A stretch of DNA of 64,000 nucleotides. It comes from Muribaculaceae bacterium (GTDB lineage: Bacteria; Bacteroidota; Bacteroidia; Bacteroidales; Muribaculaceae). Numbering within the stretch: position 1 is the stretch's first letter; every line of letters begins with the position of its first letter. The stretch spans positions 2,259 through 66,258 of the forward strand of contig JAFRRT010000021.1 of NCBI GenBank assembly GCA_017427945.1, read 5' to 3'. A program made the position numbers and the translations under genes. A model generated the notes under the pieces. It worked only from the letters and a program-made list of their open reading frames with translations. It was not told the DNA's origin and did no database searches. This document shows, piece after piece, positions 10,011-39,460 of this stretch.

Positions 10011-10027
10011 ACCCTCAATGAGCTAAC

Positions 10028-10125
10028 AGTTAATAGTTAATAGAGAATAGTTGGCAGACTATAACCGTCAACGGGTTAAAGCAACCAACGAAAATCTATT
10101 AACTATTAACTATTCTCTATTAACT
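10028..10125. repeat. Palindromic heptamer element (GTTAATA/GAGAATA arms in inverted orientation)
   Basis: Left arm GTTAATA GTTAATA GAGAATA GTT; the right arm is a reverse-complement array CTATTAACTATTAACTATTCTCTATTAACT. Confidence 0.8.
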
Positions 10126-24414: not shown

Positions 24415-26322
24415 ATGGGCATCAAACTAACTAGACTCAATCTATGGCATGCTATGACCCTGTTGCTGGCATTGATGTTTGTGGCACCACACTCATTGGC
24501 TACCAACTATGTGACATTCAATAACGGAAGGCTCATCGTTTTCCCAGATTCTTGTGTCAAAGCCTTCGTGACAGACGATGGGAGGTTGACAGTCACTGCC
24601 ATGGACGACAAGGTTTACACTTACTCGCTTGAAGAGATCGCCTCAATCGACCAGCAACTTAACAAGGTGCTGCCCTCTATCACATCCTACAAGTTCAACA
24701 ACAAGTACAACTACCAAGTGTACACCGATGCTACAGGAGTGATTGGCGACGGCGAAATCAATGTAACTGTTGCAGGTATCGGCAAGCGATTGACAGCATC
24801 GTTCAGCCTCTCGGACGAAAACGCCAAAGCCTACGTCGATGGTGTGGAGCAGATCAGCAAGGAGAGCCGCCTGCGTTTTGACGGCAGCCGCGTGTACACA
24901 GTGGGATATCAAGGTGACAAGATACTGTTGCCCGATGTCAATGGCCAATATGTGTTCTTGCCTTTTGGCAGGGAATATTCTGTCAGTGTCGATTTCCTGA
25001 TCGACCAAGCCACCAAAGTACCGCAAATCTATATCAACACCGTGAATGGCGAACCCATATCCAGCAAAAAAAACTATCTTGATGCCGAAATCATTATCGA
25101 CGGAGCCGGTGTTTTCCCGTCAATGACCGATTCAGTTCAAGTCAAGGGACGAGGGCACACATCCTGGTCTTCTAATCCAGACTCCAAAAACCCCTACCGC
25201 CTGAAGTTTGCCGAGAAAGTGAAACCGCTGGGCTTGACCAAGGGCAAAAACTGGGTACTGCTTGCCAACAAATACATGTCCTCAATGTTAACCAATGCCT
25301 TCGGCATGAAGGCCGCCAGCCTCATCGGGACAGCTGCCGTGAACCATATCATCCCTGTGGACCTGTTTGTCAATGGAGTTTACAAGGGCAGTTACAACTT
25401 TACCGAGAAAGTGGGCTTGGCAAACAACAGCGTGGACCTCGACGATGAGAGTGTCGCTACACTGTTAGAACTGGACAGCTACTATGACGAAGATGACACC
25501 CAGAAATTCAGGTCATCACCGTACAGCATCCCCGTGAATATCAAAGATCCCGATTTCAGCGAAGGGACCACTGTCCTCACATTAAATGACATCAAACAGC
25601 GTTTTAACGCTTTTATCAGATCCGTTAAGAATGACGAGGATTTCACCGACTTGGTGGACGTGGACTACCTTGCCCGGTTCCTGCTGTTGAATGAACTGAT
25701 CTGCAACTATGAGATTTTCCACCCAAAGAGCACTTACTGTTACAATGAGAACATTCTTGACGATGACAGCAAGTTTGTATTCGGACCCGTGTGGGACTTT
25801 GACTGGGCCTTTGGCTATCAGACCAACAGGAACTATTTCAAGTGTAATCCCACTGTGGACTTTTACACCCAAGTGAGCATGACACAATTGCCCTTCTTTA
25901 CCAAACTGCGCTACAATGAAAAGGTTTCAAAGCGCATCTATGAAGTCTTAAAAGATTTCGTCGAGAATGGTTTGGACGAGTTGTGTGAGTTTTGCCAAGA
26001 ATATTACCTGTATGCCAAGCCTTCACTTAAACTGAACAAGGTACCGAACAAAGACGGTACCGACTACGCTGCACAGGCGACGATGGCCGCCGATTGGTTC
26101 AGAGAACGAGCTGAATACATGCTTGCCAGCATGGAGCCCGAGCCCACCCTGCCGGGTGACGTGAACGGTGACGGTGAGGTGAACATCGCCGACGTGAATG
26201 CCATCATTGACTTCATTTTGGCCGGGATAGGCTCAGCCAGCGCTGCCGACGTGAATCAAGATGGTGAGGTGAACGTTGGTGATATCACATCAATCATCGA
26301 CATCTTGTTACGTGGGCGTTAA
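24415..26322 (+). CDS. Secreted CotH-family kinase-like protein with a C-terminal dockerin-like domain
   Basis: VKGRGHTSW, KNPYRLKF, KNWVLLANK, YKGSYNFTEKV and FGPVWDFDWAFG motifs; [15 protein letters not shown] repeat pair. Confidence 0.88.
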   Translation: MGIKLTRLNLWHAMTLLLALMFVAPHSLATNYVTFNNGRLIVFPDSCVKAFVTDDGRLTVTAMDDKVYTYSLEEIASIDQQLNKVLPSITSYKFNNKYNYQVYTDATGVIGDGEINVTVAGIGKRLTASFSLSDENAKAYVDGVEQISKESRLRFDGSRVYTVGYQGDKILLPDVNGQYVFLPFGREYSVSVDFLIDQATKVPQIYINTVNGEPISSKKNYLDAEIIIDGAGVFPSMTDSVQVKGRGHTSWSSNPDSKNPYRLKFAEKVKPLGLTKGKNWVLLANKYMSSMLTNAFGMKAASLIGTAAVNHIIPVDLFVNGVYKGSYNFTEKVGLANNSVDLDDESVATLLELDSYYDEDDTQKFRSSPYSIPVNIKDPDFSEGTTVLTLNDIKQRFNAFIRSVKNDEDFTDLVDVDYLARFLLLNELICNYEIFHPKSTYCYNENILDDDSKFVFGPVWDFDWAFGYQTNRNYFKCNPTVDFYTQVSMTQLPFFTKLRYNEKVSKRIYEVLKDFVENGLDELCEFCQEYYLYAKPSLKLNKVPNKDGTDYAAQATMAADWFRERAEYMLASMEPEPTLPGDVNGDGEVNIADVNAIIDFILAGIGSASAADVNQDGEVNVGDITSIIDILLRGR

Positions 26323-27946: not shown

Positions 27947-29803
27947 ATGAAAGAATACCTCCAATTGACAGACCAACAAATCGAATCCCTGAAAAAGAAT
28001 GACTGTTGGGCACAAGACTGGAAAGACATCAAGGTAACGGCCGATTTTGACACGAGCCGCTGCCACCGCGTGCAGTTCTATGGCTGGGCTCGCCTGGGTA
28101 ACGGATGCGGCACGGTAGAAATCACCGACGGATTTGTGAAGAACTGTGGCATCTATAATGCCACGCTGCGCAATGTGACTATCGGCGACAACTGCCTCAT
28201 CGAGAACATCGGCAACTACATGAACAACGTAACCATTGGCGACAGTTGCTACATCTCAAACGTGAGCACCATCGACACCATGGGTGAACCCAACTACGGA
28301 CAAGGGCACACCATCGCCGTCCTCAACGAGGTGGGCAACGGCAACCTGTTATTGCTCAATGAACTCAACAGCCAGCTCGCCGCCCTCATGGTCAAGCATG
28401 GCGACAACAAGCCACTGATGGACGCCATCAAACGCATGGTAGCACAGTCTGTGGCCAATTCGCGTCCCGAGTGCAGCACCATCGGCAACCAGGTTCGTAT
28501 CGTCAACACGGGTGTTATCATCAACAGCATCATTGATGACGGATGCCAGTTGTGCGGTGTGTCACGGTTGAGCAACTGCACCATCAGCAGCACGATGGAG
28601 AATCCCATCATCATTCGCACGGGCGTCATGTGCGAGAACACCATCATCAGCGGTGGTTCACACCTCTTTGGCAGCGTCAAACTGACCGATTGCTTTGTAG
28701 GCGAGTCATGCCATTTGGAGAACGGTTTCACTGCTGCCAGTAGCGTGTTTTTCGCCAACAGCTACATGTCTAACGGTGAAGCCTGTGCAGCATTTTGCGG
28801 TCCCTTCACGGTGAGCCACCACAAGAGTTCGCTGCTCATCGGCGCCATGTTCTCGTTCTACAATGCTGGGTCGGCGACTAACTTCAGCAATCATGCCTAC
28901 AAAATGGGGCCTATGCACTACGGCGCTTTGGAACGCGGCTGCAAGACCGCCAGCGGCGCCTATCTGCTCCTGCCGGCAAACATCGGCTCATTCAGCGTGT
29001 TGTTTGGCAAGCTGATGTACCACCCCGACACACGCGACCTACCCTTCTCCTACCTTATCGCCTATGGCGACACGATGTACCTGAAACCAGGCCGCAACTT
29101 CGCCACGGTAGGCCTGTACCGCGACATCCGTAAATGGCCCAAACGCGACAAGCGCTATAAGAAAGAACACCGCAGTGTAGTCAACTTCGACTGGCTAAGC
29201 CCCTTCACCATCAGTGAAGTGCTGCGAGGAAAGAAGATTCTCGAGAGGCTGCGTGCCGCCAGCGGCGACAACGTGAGCACCTACAACTACCACGAGTATG
29301 TCATCAAGGCGCCCTTCCTGCACAAGGGCATCAAGTACTATGACATGGCACTGCGCATCTACATGGGCGCGGTGCTCAAGCGCCACAAACCCGTGCCTCC
29401 TGTCTCGACCGATGGCGAGGGCAACTGGATCGACCTCATGGGACTGCTCATGCCGCAGAGTGCCGAGGAGCGCATCATTGACGACATCATTGCCGGACGC
29501 CTCAACACCATCGACGCCGTCAACGCCCGATTCAAGGAAATCCACAACAACTACAACGAGTTGAGGTGGTCGTGGAGTTACCGCATCATCCTCGACTACT
29601 ACGGTATCGACGAACTCACCGAAGAGGCCGTGCAACGCATCCACCAGGACTACGTCACCGCACGCCGTGAATGGATTTCCCTCATCCGCGAAGACGCCGA
29701 GAACGAGTACACCCTGGGCGACATCGACCGCGAAGTGCTCGACGACTTCGTCACCCTCCTCGACCGCGAAGTGGACTTCGAGAACCAGAAATTGTATATG
29801 TAA
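27947..29803 (+). CDS. DUF4954-family protein (hexapeptide beta-helix-like)
   Basis: I/V-G-D-N/S-C hexapeptide repeats; GEACAAFCGPFTVSHHKSSLLI and GSATNFSNHAYKMGP motifs; -7 box at 27908. Confidence 0.88.
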   Translation: MKEYLQLTDQQIESLKKNDCWAQDWKDIKVTADFDTSRCHRVQFYGWARLGNGCGTVEITDGFVKNCGIYNATLRNVTIGDNCLIENIGNYMNNVTIGDSCYISNVSTIDTMGEPNYGQGHTIAVLNEVGNGNLLLLNELNSQLAALMVKHGDNKPLMDAIKRMVAQSVANSRPECSTIGNQVRIVNTGVIINSIIDDGCQLCGVSRLSNCTISSTMENPIIIRTGVMCENTIISGGSHLFGSVKLTDCFVGESCHLENGFTAASSVFFANSYMSNGEACAAFCGPFTVSHHKSSLLIGAMFSFYNAGSATNFSNHAYKMGPMHYGALERGCKTASGAYLLLPANIGSFSVLFGKLMYHPDTRDLPFSYLIAYGDTMYLKPGRNFATVGLYRDIRKWPKRDKRYKKEHRSVVNFDWLSPFTISEVLRGKKILERLRAASGDNVSTYNYHEYVIKAPFLHKGIKYYDMALRIYMGAVLKRHKPVPPVSTDGEGNWIDLMGLLMPQSAEERIIDDIIAGRLNTIDAVNARFKEIHNNYNELRWSWSYRIILDYYGIDELTEEAVQRIHQDYVTARREWISLIREDAENEYTLGDIDREVLDDFVTLLDREVDFENQKLYM

Positions 29804-29807
29804 TAAT

Positions 29808-29849
29808 GAGGTTAAAGGTTAGAGGTTAAAGGTTAGAGGTTAAAGGTTA
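29808..29849 (+). repeat. Tandem array (GAGGTTAAAGGTTA)x3, i.e. six heptamers
   Basis: Three perfect 14-bp copies directly before the four-helix-bundle ATG. Confidence 0.95.
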
Positions 29850-29855
29850 GAGGGA

Positions 29856-30230
29856 ATGGAAGATTTGGACATTTTTCAGTTTGAGAGGCTAGTAGCATGG
29901 AAAAAAGCAAAAGAACTGACGCGTTGTGTCTATCAACTAATTGCCAATTTCCCGCAACACGAACAGTATGCCCTCAGCAGCCAAATCAGAAGGGCTGTCA
30001 TTTCAATTCCATCAAACATTGCCGAAGGGTCCGGACGAACGTCAATGAAGGAGAAAATCCATTTTCTGGAAATTGCTTATGGCTCGCTGACAGAAACATA
30101 TTGCCAACTGCTCATCGCAGCAGAATTAGGCTATTTATCTGATGATGAATTAATTGCAATAAAACCGATATTTAAAGAGACTTCACGTCTAATAAGCGGT
30201 TTGCGGAAACGATTTAATTCTAACCTTTAA
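29856..30230 (+). CDS. Four-helix-bundle protein (S23/IVS-like, TIGR02436-type family)
   Basis: FERLVAWKKA, FPQHEQYALSSQIRRAVISIPSNIAEGSGR, FLEIAYGSLTE and ELGYL motifs. Confidence 0.93.
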   Translation: MEDLDIFQFERLVAWKKAKELTRCVYQLIANFPQHEQYALSSQIRRAVISIPSNIAEGSGRTSMKEKIHFLEIAYGSLTETYCQLLIAAELGYLSDDELIAIKPIFKETSRLISGLRKRFNSNL

Positions 30231-30240
30231 CCTCTAACCT
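30220..30240 (-). repeat. Inverted copy of the upstream heptamer array, overlapping the stop codon
   Basis: CTAACCTTTAACCTCTAACCT is the reverse complement of AGGTTAGAGGTTAAAGGTTAG. Confidence 0.9.
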
Positions 30241-30242
30241 AC

Positions 30243-30268
30243 TTGTTTTTTGCCTAGGCAAAAAACAA
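30243..30268. repeat. Perfect 26-bp palindrome
   Basis: TTGTTTTTTGCCTAGGCAAAAAACAA. Confidence 0.85.
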
Positions 30269-30296
30269 AAGAAGCGCCACTCGTGGCGCTTCTTTT
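30267..30296. terminator. Bidirectional terminator between the four-helix-bundle gene and tRNA-Met
   Basis: AAAAGAAGCGCCAC-TC-GTGGCGCTTCTTTT. Confidence 0.85.
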
Positions 30297-30297
30297 G

Positions 30298-30371
30298 TAG
30301 CGGGACTGAGAATTGAACTCAGGACCTCCGGGTTATGAATCCGACGCTCTAACCAACTGAGCTATCCCGCC
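30298..30371 (-). tRNA. tRNA-Met (CAT), probably elongator
   Basis: The reverse complement reads GGCGGGATAGCTCAGTTGGTTAGAGCG...TTCATAA...GAGTTCAATTCTCAGTCCCGCTA and folds as a cloverleaf with anticodon CAT. An Ile2 identity cannot be fully excluded. Confidence 0.93.
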
Positions 30372-30448
30372 ATTTCCCTAAAAGCGACTGCAAAGGTATA
30401 ACCATTTCCCCAACTGACCAAATTTTTTCCGAAAAAAGTTTTTTCTCA

Positions 30449-31906
30449 TCAGTTATTCTTCCAAAATGCGGGCGTGAAGATGACCAGCACGGTGAAGATT
30501 TCAAGCCTTCCCATCAGCATCAGGGCCGAGAGAATCCACTTGACCATCATCGGCAACACGCTCCACGACATGGTCGGGCCGATTTCGAGTCCCAGGGTGG
30601 GCCCCACGTTGCTGGCACAACTCAGGGCAATGGTAAACGAGTTGGTGCTGTCGACCCCGGCAAGAATCATGACGAAGTAGGCGAAGAAGCAGAGCAGGAT
30701 GAAGACCAGCAGGAAGGCAATCAACGTAATCTGGCCCGACGAGTTGATGGTCGAGTCGTTGACCTTGACCGGCAAGATGGCTTTGGGATGAATCCTGTGG
30801 AGTATCTCGTTGCGCATGATCTTCAGCGCAATGACACCGCGGGCACACTTGAAACCGCCGGCGGTGCTGCCGGCACAACCGCCGAAGAACATACACAGGC
30901 TCAGTATCACCCAGGTGATGTGATGCCACTGGGCGGCATCCTCGTTGAACATGCCCGTCGTGGTGATAAACGACACCACCTGGAACAGCGCGCACCTGAT
31001 GGCGTCCCCGACCGAATAGTGGTTATACTGCAACAGGAAATACACGATCACGACCGTCGACAGCACAATCAGCGCCGAGTAGAAGCGGAACTCCGCGTTC
31101 TTGAGCAGACGCTTGATCCTCATCTTGAAAAACGCGGCATACAGCATGGCGAAACTGATACCCGAAACGAACATGAAAATGATGGCGGTATAGTCGATTG
31201 CGGCATTGTTGAAGTAGCCCGTGCTCGCGTCGTGGGTCGCAAAGCCACCGGTAGCGGTGATGGTCATGGCATAGTTCACGGCATCAAATCCGCCCATGCC
31301 GAAGAGGAAAAACAAGAGGGCACAGGCGGCCGTGAGCACAAGATACACGCCCCACAGCGCCTTGGCGCTCATCGTCAGACGCGGCTGCAGTTTGGACTGC
31401 ACGGGACCCGTGGCCTCGGCGGCAAACACCTTGATTGAACCGCCGACAAACGACGGCAGCACGGCGATGGTGAAGAACACGATACCCAAACCGCCAATCC
31501 ACTGGGTCAGCGAACGCCATAACAGCACTCCGTGCGGCATGCCTTCCACATGGTCGATGACTGTCGCTCCCGTAGTCGTCAAGCCCGACATGGTCTCGAA
31601 GAAGGCATCCGCGATGCCCTTGATGTAGCCCCCCATGAGGAAGGGTATCGAACCGAAGGCCGCAAAGGCTATCCACACGATGGTCACGAGCAGATAGGCA
31701 TCGCGGCGGCCCAGGGCGTTGGTCGCCCCGCGCCCCAGCAGCCAGAGCACCAGTGCCGCCAGCAGCGTGGCCCCCACTGTGACAGCGAGGGGTACCATGT
31801 CGCCCTCCTGATAACACAGGGACACGATCAGGCACACCGCCATGAACATCGCCTCGAGGAACAGCAGGGTGCCCAAAATCTTGGCTATGAGTTTGAAATT
31901 TATCAT
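30449..31906 (-). CDS. trkH: Trk potassium uptake membrane protein
   Basis: FETMSGLTTTG, WIGGLG, TATGGF, FITTTG, GGCAGSTAGG, SNVGP and MGRLEI motifs. Confidence 0.95.
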   Translation of the reverse strand: MINFKLIAKILGTLLFLEAMFMAVCLIVSLCYQEGDMVPLAVTVGATLLAALVLWLLGRGATNALGRRDAYLLVTIVWIAFAAFGSIPFLMGGYIKGIADAFFETMSGLTTTGATVIDHVEGMPHGVLLWRSLTQWIGGLGIVFFTIAVLPSFVGGSIKVFAAEATGPVQSKLQPRLTMSAKALWGVYLVLTAACALLFFLFGMGGFDAVNYAMTITATGGFATHDASTGYFNNAAIDYTAIIFMFVSGISFAMLYAAFFKMRIKRLLKNAEFRFYSALIVLSTVVIVYFLLQYNHYSVGDAIRCALFQVVSFITTTGMFNEDAAQWHHITWVILSLCMFFGGCAGSTAGGFKCARGVIALKIMRNEILHRIHPKAILPVKVNDSTINSSGQITLIAFLLVFILLCFFAYFVMILAGVDSTNSFTIALSCASNVGPTLGLEIGPTMSWSVLPMMVKWILSALMLMGRLEIFTVLVIFTPAFWKNN

Positions 31907-36501: not shown

Positions 36502-37497
36502 ATGGCAGAATCAGTCAATATCAGGGACTTGAACGACCTGATTGCAAGTAAGAGTAATTTTGTGAACTTGATACGTCAAGGAATGGACCAGACCATCGTG
36601 GGCCAGAAGCATCTTGTGGACTCCCTGCTCATCGCGCTGCTCGCCAACGGGCACGTGCTGCTTGAGGGTGTTCCCGGCCTGGCCAAGACCAAGGCCATCA
36701 GCACGCTGGCATCGCTGATTGATGCCCGCTTCTCGCGCATCCAGTTCACGCCCGACCTGCTGCCTGCCGACGTAGTGGGTACGATGATTTACAGCATCAA
36801 GAAGGAGCAGTTCGAGGTTAAGAAGGGCCCAGTATTTGCGAATTTCGTCCTTGCCGACGAGATTAACCGCGCCCCTGCCAAAGTGCAGAGCGCCTTGCTC
36901 GAGGCCATGCAGGAGCGTCAGGTGACCATCGGTGAACAGACTTTTAAGCTTGATGACCCCTTCCTGGTGCTTGCCACCCAAAACCCCATCGAGCAAGAGG
37001 GTACCTATCCGCTGCCCGAAGCCCAGGTGGACCGTTTCCTGATGAAGGTGCTCATTGGCTATCCCAGCAAGAACGAGGAGGGCGACATCATCAAGATGAA
37101 CATTGCTCCTGACCCTGTCGAGGTGCGCCCGCTGGTCACCCCTGCCGACATCGTTGACACACGCAAGGTGGTTCAGCAGATTTATATCGACGAGAAAATC
37201 CAGAAGTATATCGTGGACATCGTGTTCGCCACCCGCTTCCCGAGCGACTATGGCCTGAATGACCTGAAGAGCATGATTTCGTTTGGTGCTTCGCCTCGTG
37301 CATCCATCAACATGGCGTTGGCATCAAGGGCCTATGCCTTCCTGCGCAACCGCGGCTATGTCATCCCCGAGGATGTGCGTGCCGTTTGCCACGACGTGAT
37401 GCGTCACCGTCTGGGACTCTCCTACGAGGCCGAGGCCAACAACATCACTGCCGACGAAATCATCAGCAACATCCTGGACAAGATTGCAGTTCCTTAA
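36502..37497 (+). CDS. moxR: MoxR-family AAA+ ATPase
   Basis: LEGVPGLAKT, RIQFTPDLLPAD, LADEINRAPAKVQSALLEAMQE and GASPRA motifs. Confidence 0.95.
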   Translation: MAESVNIRDLNDLIASKSNFVNLIRQGMDQTIVGQKHLVDSLLIALLANGHVLLEGVPGLAKTKAISTLASLIDARFSRIQFTPDLLPADVVGTMIYSIKKEQFEVKKGPVFANFVLADEINRAPAKVQSALLEAMQERQVTIGEQTFKLDDPFLVLATQNPIEQEGTYPLPEAQVDRFLMKVLIGYPSKNEEGDIIKMNIAPDPVEVRPLVTPADIVDTRKVVQQIYIDEKIQKYIVDIVFATRFPSDYGLNDLKSMISFGASPRASINMALASRAYAFLRNRGYVIPEDVRAVCHDVMRHRLGLSYEAEANNITADEIISNILDKIAVP

Positions 37498-37498
37498 C

Positions 37499-37590
37499 AG
37501 TTAATAGAGAATAGTTTATAGTTAATGGTTGATTGTTGCATCATTTCACAAATGAGTTAACTATTCTCTTTCAACTATTAACTATTAACT
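37499..37590. repeat. Palindromic heptamer element, same family as 10028-10125
   Basis: GTTAATA GAGAATA GTTTATA GTTAATG GTTGATT ... AACTATTCTCTTTCAACTATTAACTATTAACT. Confidence 0.8.
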
Positions 37591-38475: not shown

Positions 38476-38476
38476 A

Positions 38477-38504
38477 GTTTAGAGTTTATTGTTTAGAGTT
38501 TAGA
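38477..38504 (+). repeat. Heptamer array GTTTAGA GTTTATT GTTTAGA GTTTAGA
   Basis: Fills almost the whole intergenic gap. Confidence 0.8.
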
Positions 38505-38506
38505 GA

Positions 38507-39460
38507 ATGTCACACAAATTGAGACATATCGTGATGACCGCCATCGTGCTGCTGGCTGCAACAACCACGGCATGGGGCGGCAATGTCACTTTCAAGGCGC
38601 GGCTCGACAGCGCCACGCTGCTCATGGGAAAAACCACAGCCCTGCATCTGGAGATCACCCAGGACAAGGACGCCCGAGGCTTTTTCCCAGGGGAACAACT
38701 GGACACACTCAGCGCCATGGTCGAGATTGCCGACCGCACCAAAGCCGACACGACCGACCTGGGCAATAACCGCATTCAAATCAACCGTGACCTCATCCTC
38801 CAGAGCTTTGACTCGGGCATGTGGATCATCAAGCCCATCCCCTATGTGGTGAATGGCGACACGGCATTCTGCAATCAGCTGTCGCTCAAAGTGCTGCCGG
38901 TTGACGTGAGCAAGATGCAGGACGTGCACGACATCAAGCCCGTGGAGGACGTCCCCTTCAATCTGCTGGACTGGCTTCCCAATTACTGGTGGGCGTGGCT
39001 CCTCGCGTTGTTGCTTATCGGCGCTGGTATCTGGGCTTACCGCAAGTTCTACAAGAAAGGCATCAACCCCTTGAAGGCCGTGAAGAAACGTCTGCCGCCC
39101 TACGAGGAAGCGATGATTAACCTGCAACGGCTCAAGGAAGCCCAGTTGTGGCAGCAAGGCCAGGAGAAAGAATACTTCACAGGACTTACCGATATCCTGC
39201 GCGTCTATATTGACCGCCGCTTCCACATCAACGCCGTGGAGATGACCTCTACTCAAATCATCGAGACCCTCAAGAAGAACGAGGAGACCAAGGCTGTCAA
39301 CGAACAACTGGAGATGATTCTGGAGGTTGCCGACATCGTCAAGTTTGCCAACGCCCGACCCCTCGCCGACGACAACGAGGTGGCTTTCCAGCGTGCCGTG
39401 AACTTCGTGGAAGAGACAAAGCCCGTTGAACAACCGCAAAAAGAGGAGGTGAAGAAATGA
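38507..39460 (+). CDS. Conserved bat-operon membrane-anchored protein
   Basis: Signal peptide, TM, PPYEEAM, YFTGLTDILR, EMTSTQI and DIVKFA motifs; sits between DUF58 and batA. Confidence 0.85.
   Translation: MSHKLRHIVMTAIVLLAATTTAWGGNVTFKARLDSATLLMGKTTALHLEITQDKDARGFFPGEQLDTLSAMVEIADRTKADTTDLGNNRIQINRDLILQSFDSGMWIIKPIPYVVNGDTAFCNQLSLKVLPVDVSKMQDVHDIKPVEDVPFNLLDWLPNYWWAWLLALLLIGAGIWAYRKFYKKGINPLKAVKKRLPPYEEAMINLQRLKEAQLWQQGQEKEYFTGLTDILRVYIDRRFHINAVEMTSTQIIETLKKNEETKAVNEQLEMILEVADIVKFANARPLADDNEVAFQRAVNFVEETKPVEQPQKEEVKK

Follow-up and report, generated by a model that had tools for sequence, protein, structure and literature searches.

The stretch of DNA analysed here (the window, 64,000 nt) carries, at positions 29808 to 30240, a small gene set between two complementary arrays of 7-base repeats, in the gap between a protein-coding gene and a tRNA gene. 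The locus raises the question of what such a unit is: a relative of the intervening sequences (IVSs) of 23S rRNA placed in a messenger transcript, a mobile DNA element, an invertible switch, or a gene lying among repeats that are not its own. A first-pass annotation had offered the first two of these, proposing either that the arms pair so that the whole open reading frame (ORF) loops out of the transcript, as in an IVS, or that the gene marks a minimal mobile unit. The features needed to judge these proposals are listed below, from left to right.

27947–29803, + strand: DUF4954/DUF6819 host gene (Pfam PF16314, E = 4.6e-154)
29808–29853, + strand: 5′ heptamer array, (GAGGTTA/AAGGTTA) x6.4, equal to a 14-mer x3.3, ending 2 nt before the ATG
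29856–30230, + strand: four-helix-bundle gene (PF05635 23S_rRNA_IVP / TIGR02436), 124 aa, PF05635 E = 1.6e-35
30219–30240, + strand: 3′ inverted heptamer array, TCTAACC x3.1, perfect complement of 29830–29851
30243–30268, no strand assigned: short perfect palindrome TTGTTTTTTGCCT/AGGCAAAAAACAA between cassette and terminator, forming its own hairpin when folded
30265–30298, no strand assigned: GC-rich hairpin flanked by A- and T-runs (inverted-repeat search and minus-strand terminator scan)
30297–30371, − strand: tRNA-Met(cat) (ARAGORN; Rfam tRNA, 66.9 bits)

Tandem repeat analysis (TRF) resolved the 5′ array as (GAGGTTAAAGGTTA)x3.3 at 29808–29853, with 100% matches and a score of 92. The third complete 14-mer finishes at 29849, 6 nt short of the ATG (29856), in agreement with the first-pass annotation, and a partial fourth copy continues to 29853. 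The stop codon, TAA at 30228–30230, lies inside the 3′ arm; the 21-bp exact reverse complement said to overlap it is present and measured 22 nt here (29830–29851 paired with 30219–30240), extending to 33 nt at 85%. With 22 perfect nucleotides, the 3′ arm is short compared with the 46-nt 5′ array. The arm score of 22 stands well apart from the surrounding genome, designated G000, in which 400 random pairs of positions 375 bp apart gave a maximum of 12, none of them reaching the score of the cassette.

On the left, the DUF4954 stop at 29803 lies 4 nt before the 5′ array. On the right, the GC-rich hairpin at 30265–30298 is the terminator of tRNA-Met and probably also terminates the DUF4954-cassette transcript, while the tRNA-Met gene itself is the conserved right anchor of a variable gap. 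The gene had been placed correctly between that stop and that terminator, and its higher AT content relative to its neighbours was also borne out: GC and GC3 are 40% and 37% in the cassette ORF versus 55% and 76% in DUF4954 and 57.5% and 81% in TrkH. The neighbours of the cassette are DUF4954, tRNA-Met, TrkH, and TrkA; no recombinase, no reverse transcriptase, and no template or variable repeats occur among them. The statement that the gene has no promoter of its own agrees with the absence of the Bacteroidetes −7 motif (TAnnTTTG) from the + strand in the approximately 350 nt scanned upstream; the same interval contains one sigma-70-like match, which is at chance level. When 29600–30500 was searched against Rfam, the tRNA was the sole match, and the cassette is flanked by a protein-coding gene and a tRNA, not by 23S rRNA.

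The cassette protein matched PF05635 with 121.9 bits (cut-off 33.8) over profile positions 2–106 of 106 and TIGR02436 with 116.6 bits (cut-off 24), and its residues 9–119 are homologous to XCC0516 (PDB: 2GSC; E = 1.9e-23). Judged by this homology to a solved pentamer, the protein is a member of the four-helix-bundle family, as had been assigned. The kinship with the DGR accessory protein Avd that had been claimed alongside it is distant only. The fold of Avd (bAvd; PDB: 4DWL) is a related four-helix bundle and both are small, basic, pentamer-forming proteins with weak HMM matches to each other; however, both Avd models score under their cut-offs (NF033474, 24.1 bits versus 80; PF22296, 23.6 bits versus 40, E = 7e-5), and the cassette gene has no reverse transcriptase or template/variable repeat next to it. 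Among orthologous cassette alleles dN/dS ranges from 0.04 to 0.17, with similar values for DUF4954, so the protein is under purifying selection and hence is made and used. Four of the 21 filled alleles at the DUF4954/tRNA-Met locus are pseudogenes and the gene has been lost in many lineages, so that the cassette gene is evidently dispensable.

We then considered whether the arms belong to this copy or to the family. Among 121 sampled genomes of the rumen Prevotella genus, 103 contain PF05635 genes, with 0 to 10 per genome. An arm survey of 88 genes (80 further genes of the genus and eight at the DUF4954/tRNA-Met locus) revealed cognate inverted arms with a score of at least 15 in 68 (77%), compared with 6% of non-cognate arm pairs, formed across different cassettes, and 0/400 random G000 sites. 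Across phyla, 45 of the 76 analysable loci in the sample were armed (59%), and period 7 was dominant. The words of the arms vary by locus (TAGTTTC/TAGTCCC, AAGTTTT, CAGTTGT, TTAGACT, TTTAGGC, GATTAGA, AGTTTAG; a few with period 8) and have YTAR cores, and the heptamer word tracks the protein clade, also between different loci. These observations show that the arms are specific to the cassette and inherited with the gene, and that this layout is standard among the family members of this Prevotella genus. The flanking arrays are therefore shared by most of the four-helix-bundle genes that the first-pass annotation had singled out for comparison, and the gene is not syntenically fixed, its locus being polymorphic.

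The survey also disclosed how the cassettes are placed. The median distance from the end of the upstream ORF to the 5′ arm is 8 nt and that from the 3′ arm to the next ORF is 18 nt; cassettes fill the stop-to-start gap between neighbouring genes. The gene runs in the direction of its upstream neighbour at 30 of 32 unique loci, and 23 of these lie between co-directional genes. All three frames on both strands are closed by 59% of the arms versus 25% of word-shuffled controls, a property that is enriched, not universal.

A comparison of the orthologous gap in 44 genomes of the sub-clade with this gene order yielded a series of alleles. The gap is filled in 21 genomes, with the gene in the + orientation in 18 and flipped between unchanged flanks in three (G029, G083, and G098); the pseudogenes are all among the + alleles, two with a frameshift (G025, G117) and two with a stop codon (G118, G143). 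Empty alleles, the first thing that one would look for in a mobile unit, were found as short gene-less gaps of 54–130 nt in 15/44 genomes. Four gaps hold other DNA (202–210 bp in G007 and G094, an 877-bp insert in G099, and a Y1-transposase insert in G028), and in the remaining four genomes no tRNA-Met was found downstream in the stretch examined, two of these being cut by contig ends.

The 17 intact proteins encoded at this locus form one clade against 78 proteins from other loci (SH-aLRT 99), and the cassette therefore arrived once; as read from the protein tree, a single entry into the gap in the ancestor of a sub-clade is shown, and no re-insertion was detected at the DUF4954/tRNA-Met locus among these 17 proteins of one clade. 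When the filled and empty states are placed on the DUF4954 tree, at least nine changes are needed. Counting these as nine insertions was considered and rejected, because the gap recombines independently of its flanks.

Several alleles illustrate that recombination. Relative to its sister G068, the 'empty' allele of G128 retains the 5′ array with GGGAAT and, fused directly to it, the final 18 nt of the ORF with the 3′ array; it is an internal deletion that left a bare hairpin. Gene-less short alleles, where traceable, arose by such deletions or are unrelated alleles of the gap that recombination brought in. Several alleles contain higher-order tandem units that combine the array with the first 20–60 nt of the ORF, the result of unequal recombination, and the flipped alleles are the expected product of recombination between inverted arms; inversion in place was also seen elsewhere, between L112 and L116. 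The arms demonstrably recombine as DNA. The words found at this locus (AGTTTAG, AGTTTAA, AGGTTAA, and TGTTTAA) differ by single bases, each matched in both arms.

Exchange extends to the gap as a whole. The window protein groups with those of G100, G029, and G068, while the window DUF4954 is sister to those of G011 and G022. In the comparison of G000 with G011, identity reaches 98% over the final 450 nt of DUF4954 and 100% over the tRNA with its spacer but is just 36–63% across the whole gap (29800–30296), and dS is about 3.2 for the cassette gene (IVP) versus 0.48 for DUF4954. The entire gap, terminators included, is thus exchanged between species by homologous recombination anchored in the conserved flanks.

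Two further structures were observed in this gap. In L003–L006, L008, L013, and L014 (approximately locus positions 295–330), a palindrome of 12–14 bp includes the DUF4954 stop codon (TGTAAAATGTGC..GCACATTTTACA); it occurs in many relatives, with compensatory variants between species, and is absent in the window and in the short gene-less alleles. In the gap of G028 (L014/L162), a 974-bp insert replaces the cassette and encodes an IS200-like Y1 transposase (PF01797, E = 4e-21) that is flanked by GC-rich hairpins; isolated AGGTTAAAGG and CTCTAAAC heptamers lie at the margins of the insert.

Evidence for movement came from relatives of the window cassette. The clade of the window cassette occupies one locus; its sister clade, armed with TAGTTTC/TAGTCCC (TAGTYYY; SH-aLRT 95), is found at four unrelated junctions and keeps its arms in every one: speA>truA, LD-carboxypeptidase>membrane protein, aspS>nif3, and S41 peptidase>. 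Occurrence in several genomic contexts, as expected of a MITE or transposon-like element, is seen in the sister clade and not in the clade of the window cassette. Three of these four sites are without a TAGTYYY cassette in G000, where speA and truA overlap as a TAATG stop/start and the other gaps measure 13 nt and 30 nt. The occurrence in four junctions indicates that whole cassettes relocate, rarely, on the time scale of species divergence, and relocating cassettes come to lie precisely between one stop codon and the following start. The proposal of a minimal mobile unit is thus partly upheld: the sister clade relocates and the locus of the window is polymorphic, but the cassette has a single origin here and its arms are unique in G000, where AGGTTAR x2 was found at no site other than the DUF4954/tRNA-Met cassette. 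Almost all protein pairs with at least 80% identity are syntenic. No direct repeats indicative of target duplication were seen at the junctions of the window cassette, nor at those of the TAGTYYY cassettes when set against the G000 empty sites, in comparisons of older filled/empty pairs.

The aspS>nif3 site, occupied by a TAGTYYY cassette in G035, holds a gene-less hairpin of the word TTTAGGC in G000. Derivation of this hairpin from the TTTAGGC-armed gene clade was considered and not adopted, as no link was apparent and the context of that clade differs. The speA>truA junction was also inspected in 30 genomes (L167–L196), in which the flanking proteins are 98–100% identical and the spacer is hypervariable, consisting almost wholly of short tandem repeats. 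Its contents are 0 nt with the TAATG overlap, direct arrays of period 8–9 (CTAGA/TATAG), CGCTAAG-armed bare hairpins (13 genomes), or cassettes.

Heptamer arrays are not confined to cassettes. G000 contains 236 period-7 arrays (TRF), of which 174 are intergenic although intergenic DNA makes up 11% of the genome, and of its ten inverted pairs of such arrays one alone holds a PF05635 gene. This is also the one real PF05635 copy of G000, beside roughly 174 intergenic arrays with other words; recognition of all of these by one protein is doubtful. Two inverted array pairs with cassette-sized loops in G000 (C25:2572-3027 and C6:23176-23660) contain other hairpin repeats and no gene remnant.

The number of arrays per genome follows the gene. 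Counting the pattern TTAG(N3) x4 in the 121 genomes, we found at most five hits in all 18 genomes without PF05635 (median 0) and more than five, up to 469, in 75 of the 103 genomes with it. The association (Fisher p = 2e-9; Spearman rho 0.48, with kinship handled by a two-way split alone and genome size uncorrected) holds on both sides of that split, with a rho of 0.57 inside the close clade (n = 44) and 0.46 outside it (n = 77). The IS200-like Y1 transposase was evaluated as the enzyme behind the arrays and rejected; this control family of small mobile genes (Y1_Tnp) correlates weakly with the arrays (rho 0.27), which are still present in eight of the 23 Y1-less genomes, some of them array-rich.

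In the predicted fold of the transcript, the two arms pair with each other and leave the entire ORF as a loop (MFE −152.4 kcal/mol, z = −5.98), with the pairing present in both the MFE and the centroid folds. The pairing that had been proposed from the letters alone is supported, as a model, by this fold, by complementarity kept across differing words, and by the co-orientation at 30/32 loci. Mismatches between the arms showed no wobble bias, with 116 G:U versus 133 A:C on the sense strand of 113 cassettes (p = 0.31), a result that lends no support to selection at the RNA level and speaks against a purely RNA-level reading. Recombination of the arms as DNA could thus maintain their complementarity in place of selection on an RNA stem.

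The closest known system is the 23S rRNA IVS of Coxiella burnetii (helix 45) and Leptospira, in which an ORF of the same PF05635 family is enclosed by stem-forming terminal inverted repeats. In Coxiella, the S23p ORF lies within a 28-bp stem, tandem heptamers precede its ATG, and the IVS is excised by RNase III (PMC4990558). The cassette resembles this arrangement in its tandem heptamers directly upstream of the ATG, in the lack of its own promoter, and, as far as its position indicates, in being transcribed within a host RNA. It differs in that it is not in rRNA and lies after a protein-coding gene beside a tRNA terminator, and elsewhere in the genus between cistrons; in that both of its arms are wholly heptamer arrays; and in that its protein is under purifying selection, in contrast to the decaying, apparently untranslated Coxiella ORF.

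We read the window element as an IVS-like cassette in an mRNA context. That it is an IVS-like unit outside rRNA, in which complementary heptamer arrays enclose a PF05635 gene read through from DUF4954, is the account that we favour, with confidence slightly better than even. Its placement at a cistron boundary, its co-orientation with the upstream gene, the lack of a promoter, and the pairing of the arms fit an element that lives in host transcripts as a long stem. Transcription would enter the cassette by read-through from DUF4954, its presumed source, and the arms of the transcript would then form the long stem that the fold predicts, looping out the ORF. By analogy with the Coxiella IVS, this stem may be a substrate for double-strand-specific processing by RNase III, and such processing could release the cassette from the mRNA of the host gene. 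The protein, which is homologous to the pentameric, nucleic-acid-binding Avd, may act on YTAR-type heptamer arrays, because the word follows the clade and the presence of the gene predicts the arrays. Since its single entry, the cassette has been lost by internal deletion, leaving gene-less hairpins, flipped between its arms, and passed between species by exchange of the whole gap.

Other explanations have to be weighed against this account. The arrays could be the ends of a transposon-like unit, moved as DNA by the four-helix-bundle protein or by host enzymes, with MITE-like gene-less hairpins and this copy as one insertion. The TAGTYYY clade, with the same arms in four unrelated junctions of which three are clean or arm-free in G000 (one of them the TAATG overlap), would be accounted for, as would the low GC3 of the gene relative to its neighbours, the existence of gene-less derivatives, and the covariation of gene and array counts across genomes. 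MITEs and REP-type hairpins are likewise short intergenic inverted-repeat elements with gene-less copies, and deletion derivatives occur here too. However, the cassette encodes no transposase, RAYT, or other recombinase, target-site duplication is visible at no junction examined, the count of Y1 transposases does not predict the arrays, and AGGTTAR arms occur at no second G000 site. The single origin at this locus without sign of re-insertion, the synteny of nearly all pairs with at least 80% identity, and the swap between G000 and G011, which took the whole gap with its terminators and did not run from arm to arm, also speak against it, and the strong co-orientation with the upstream gene is unexpected for a plain DNA transposon. 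We consider a DNA-level element unlikely. A more marked improbability attaches to the view in which the arms do not belong to the gene, that is, that heptamer hairpins are a general feature of junctions in the genus and that the gene landed, or is tolerated, in a pre-existing loop. It agrees with the preponderance of intergenic arrays in G000 (174/236, one pair holding the gene), with the species-to-species variation of speA>truA (0 nt, direct arrays, CGCTAAG hairpins, cassettes), and with the gene-less TTTAGGC hairpin of G000 at the site of the G035 cassette; it conflicts with a word that follows the protein clade even between loci, with the 6% match rate of non-cognate arm pairs, with traceable gene-less forms that keep pieces of the ORF (G128) and so are cassette-derived, and with the near absence of such arrays from genomes lacking PF05635.

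Invertible segments flanked by inverted repeats are common in Bacteroidales, and an inversion between the arms, site-specific or homologous, could set the gene on or off relative to DUF4954 transcription. Such a switch would explain the gene flipped between unchanged flanks in 3/21 alleles here and in one pair at another locus. We nevertheless judge it very improbable, since the neighbourhood contains no recombinase gene, the flipped forms distinguish species as fixed differences, with both orientations seen between species only, and the arms are variable repeat arrays and not a conserved recombination site; rare RecA-type exchange between 22–45-bp inverted repeats suffices for the flips. Finally, a chance juxtaposition of a tandem repeat with a short inverted match draws on the general abundance of heptamer arrays in G000 and nothing further; with 0/400 random sites reaching the score and the layout present in 77% of the genus genes and 59% of the cross-phylum sample, it is already rejected and retains a negligible probability.

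The individual ingredients of the IVS-like account are published already, each separately: the PF05635 family, the IVS of rRNA, and the over-representation of heptamer repeats (PMC4990558, PMC4679880, PMC4692102). TAACTGA is an over-represented intergenic heptamer in Beggiatoaceae, Cyanobacteria, and Bacteroidetes (PMC4679880), and the GGGAATC heptamer of Xanthomonas forms 70–75 convergent pairs (PMC4692102). Like the arrays described here, the repeats in these two papers are intergenic tandem 7-mers, often right before start codons, with some convergent inverted pairs; the present arrays differ in bracketing a PF05635 gene and in having a per-genome number that tracks that gene. A term search of PMC4679880 and passages of PMC4692102 revealed no mention of the 23S IVS protein family, and in the literature searched no publication was found that connects PF05635 genes with hairpins of heptamer arrays other than in rRNA.

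A wider reading, which we put forward tentatively and regard as more doubtful than the IVS-like account of the window, is that a single genetic system comprises PF05635 proteins together with YTAR-type heptamer arrays. Armed cassettes would be its gene-carrying, 'autonomous' form, with the gene-less arrays and hairpins, hundreds of them in each genome, as derivatives or clients. The repeats would be bound by the pentameric protein, each clade recognising its own word. By forming the stem, the arms would draw the stop codon upstream close to the start codon downstream, so that an element inserted where two cistrons meet does almost no harm to the operon, and the 23S rRNA IVSs would be copies that landed in rRNA. 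This would tie together two puzzles, namely the role of the proteins encoded by rRNA IVSs and the over-representation of 7-base tandem repeats between bacterial genes. If the arms hide the insertion from the host operon, they would represent a new way for a small gene to live within transcription units. The natural allelic series within one genus, comprising intact, inverted, and pseudogenised cassettes, cassettes deleted to a bare hairpin, and short gene-less gaps, makes the role of the hairpin and the target of the protein testable with ordinary genetics and RNA mapping.

Additional repeats and genes were encountered in the window and in G000. Two gene-less hairpins in the window (10024–10125 and 37497–37590) share GTTAATA/GAGAATA heptamers around different loops of approximately 30–45 nt, and this word recurs in about 20 arrays scattered over G000. 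At 38476–38505 of the window, an AGTTTAG array, for which no inverted partner was seen, takes up the entire interval between the stop of one gene and the start codon (ATG at 38507) of the co-directional gene that follows. A second, weak PF05635-like match in G000 (C35:69923-70129, L002; 28 bits, below the cut-off) lies within a 210-aa frame and is preceded by a period-9 ATAGGTCC-type array. An AT-rich hairpin element (GGAAATTAAACA ... TGTTTAATTTCC, then CGTGCGNTAGCACG) was noted at C6:23100-23720 of G000 and in L007 (G007); it occupies several gaps, including the DUF4954>tRNA-Met gap of G007. Upstream of the cassette, positions 24415–26322 of the window encode a CotH-kinase-like protein with a C-terminal dockerin domain (PF08757 and PF00404) in this Prevotella genome.
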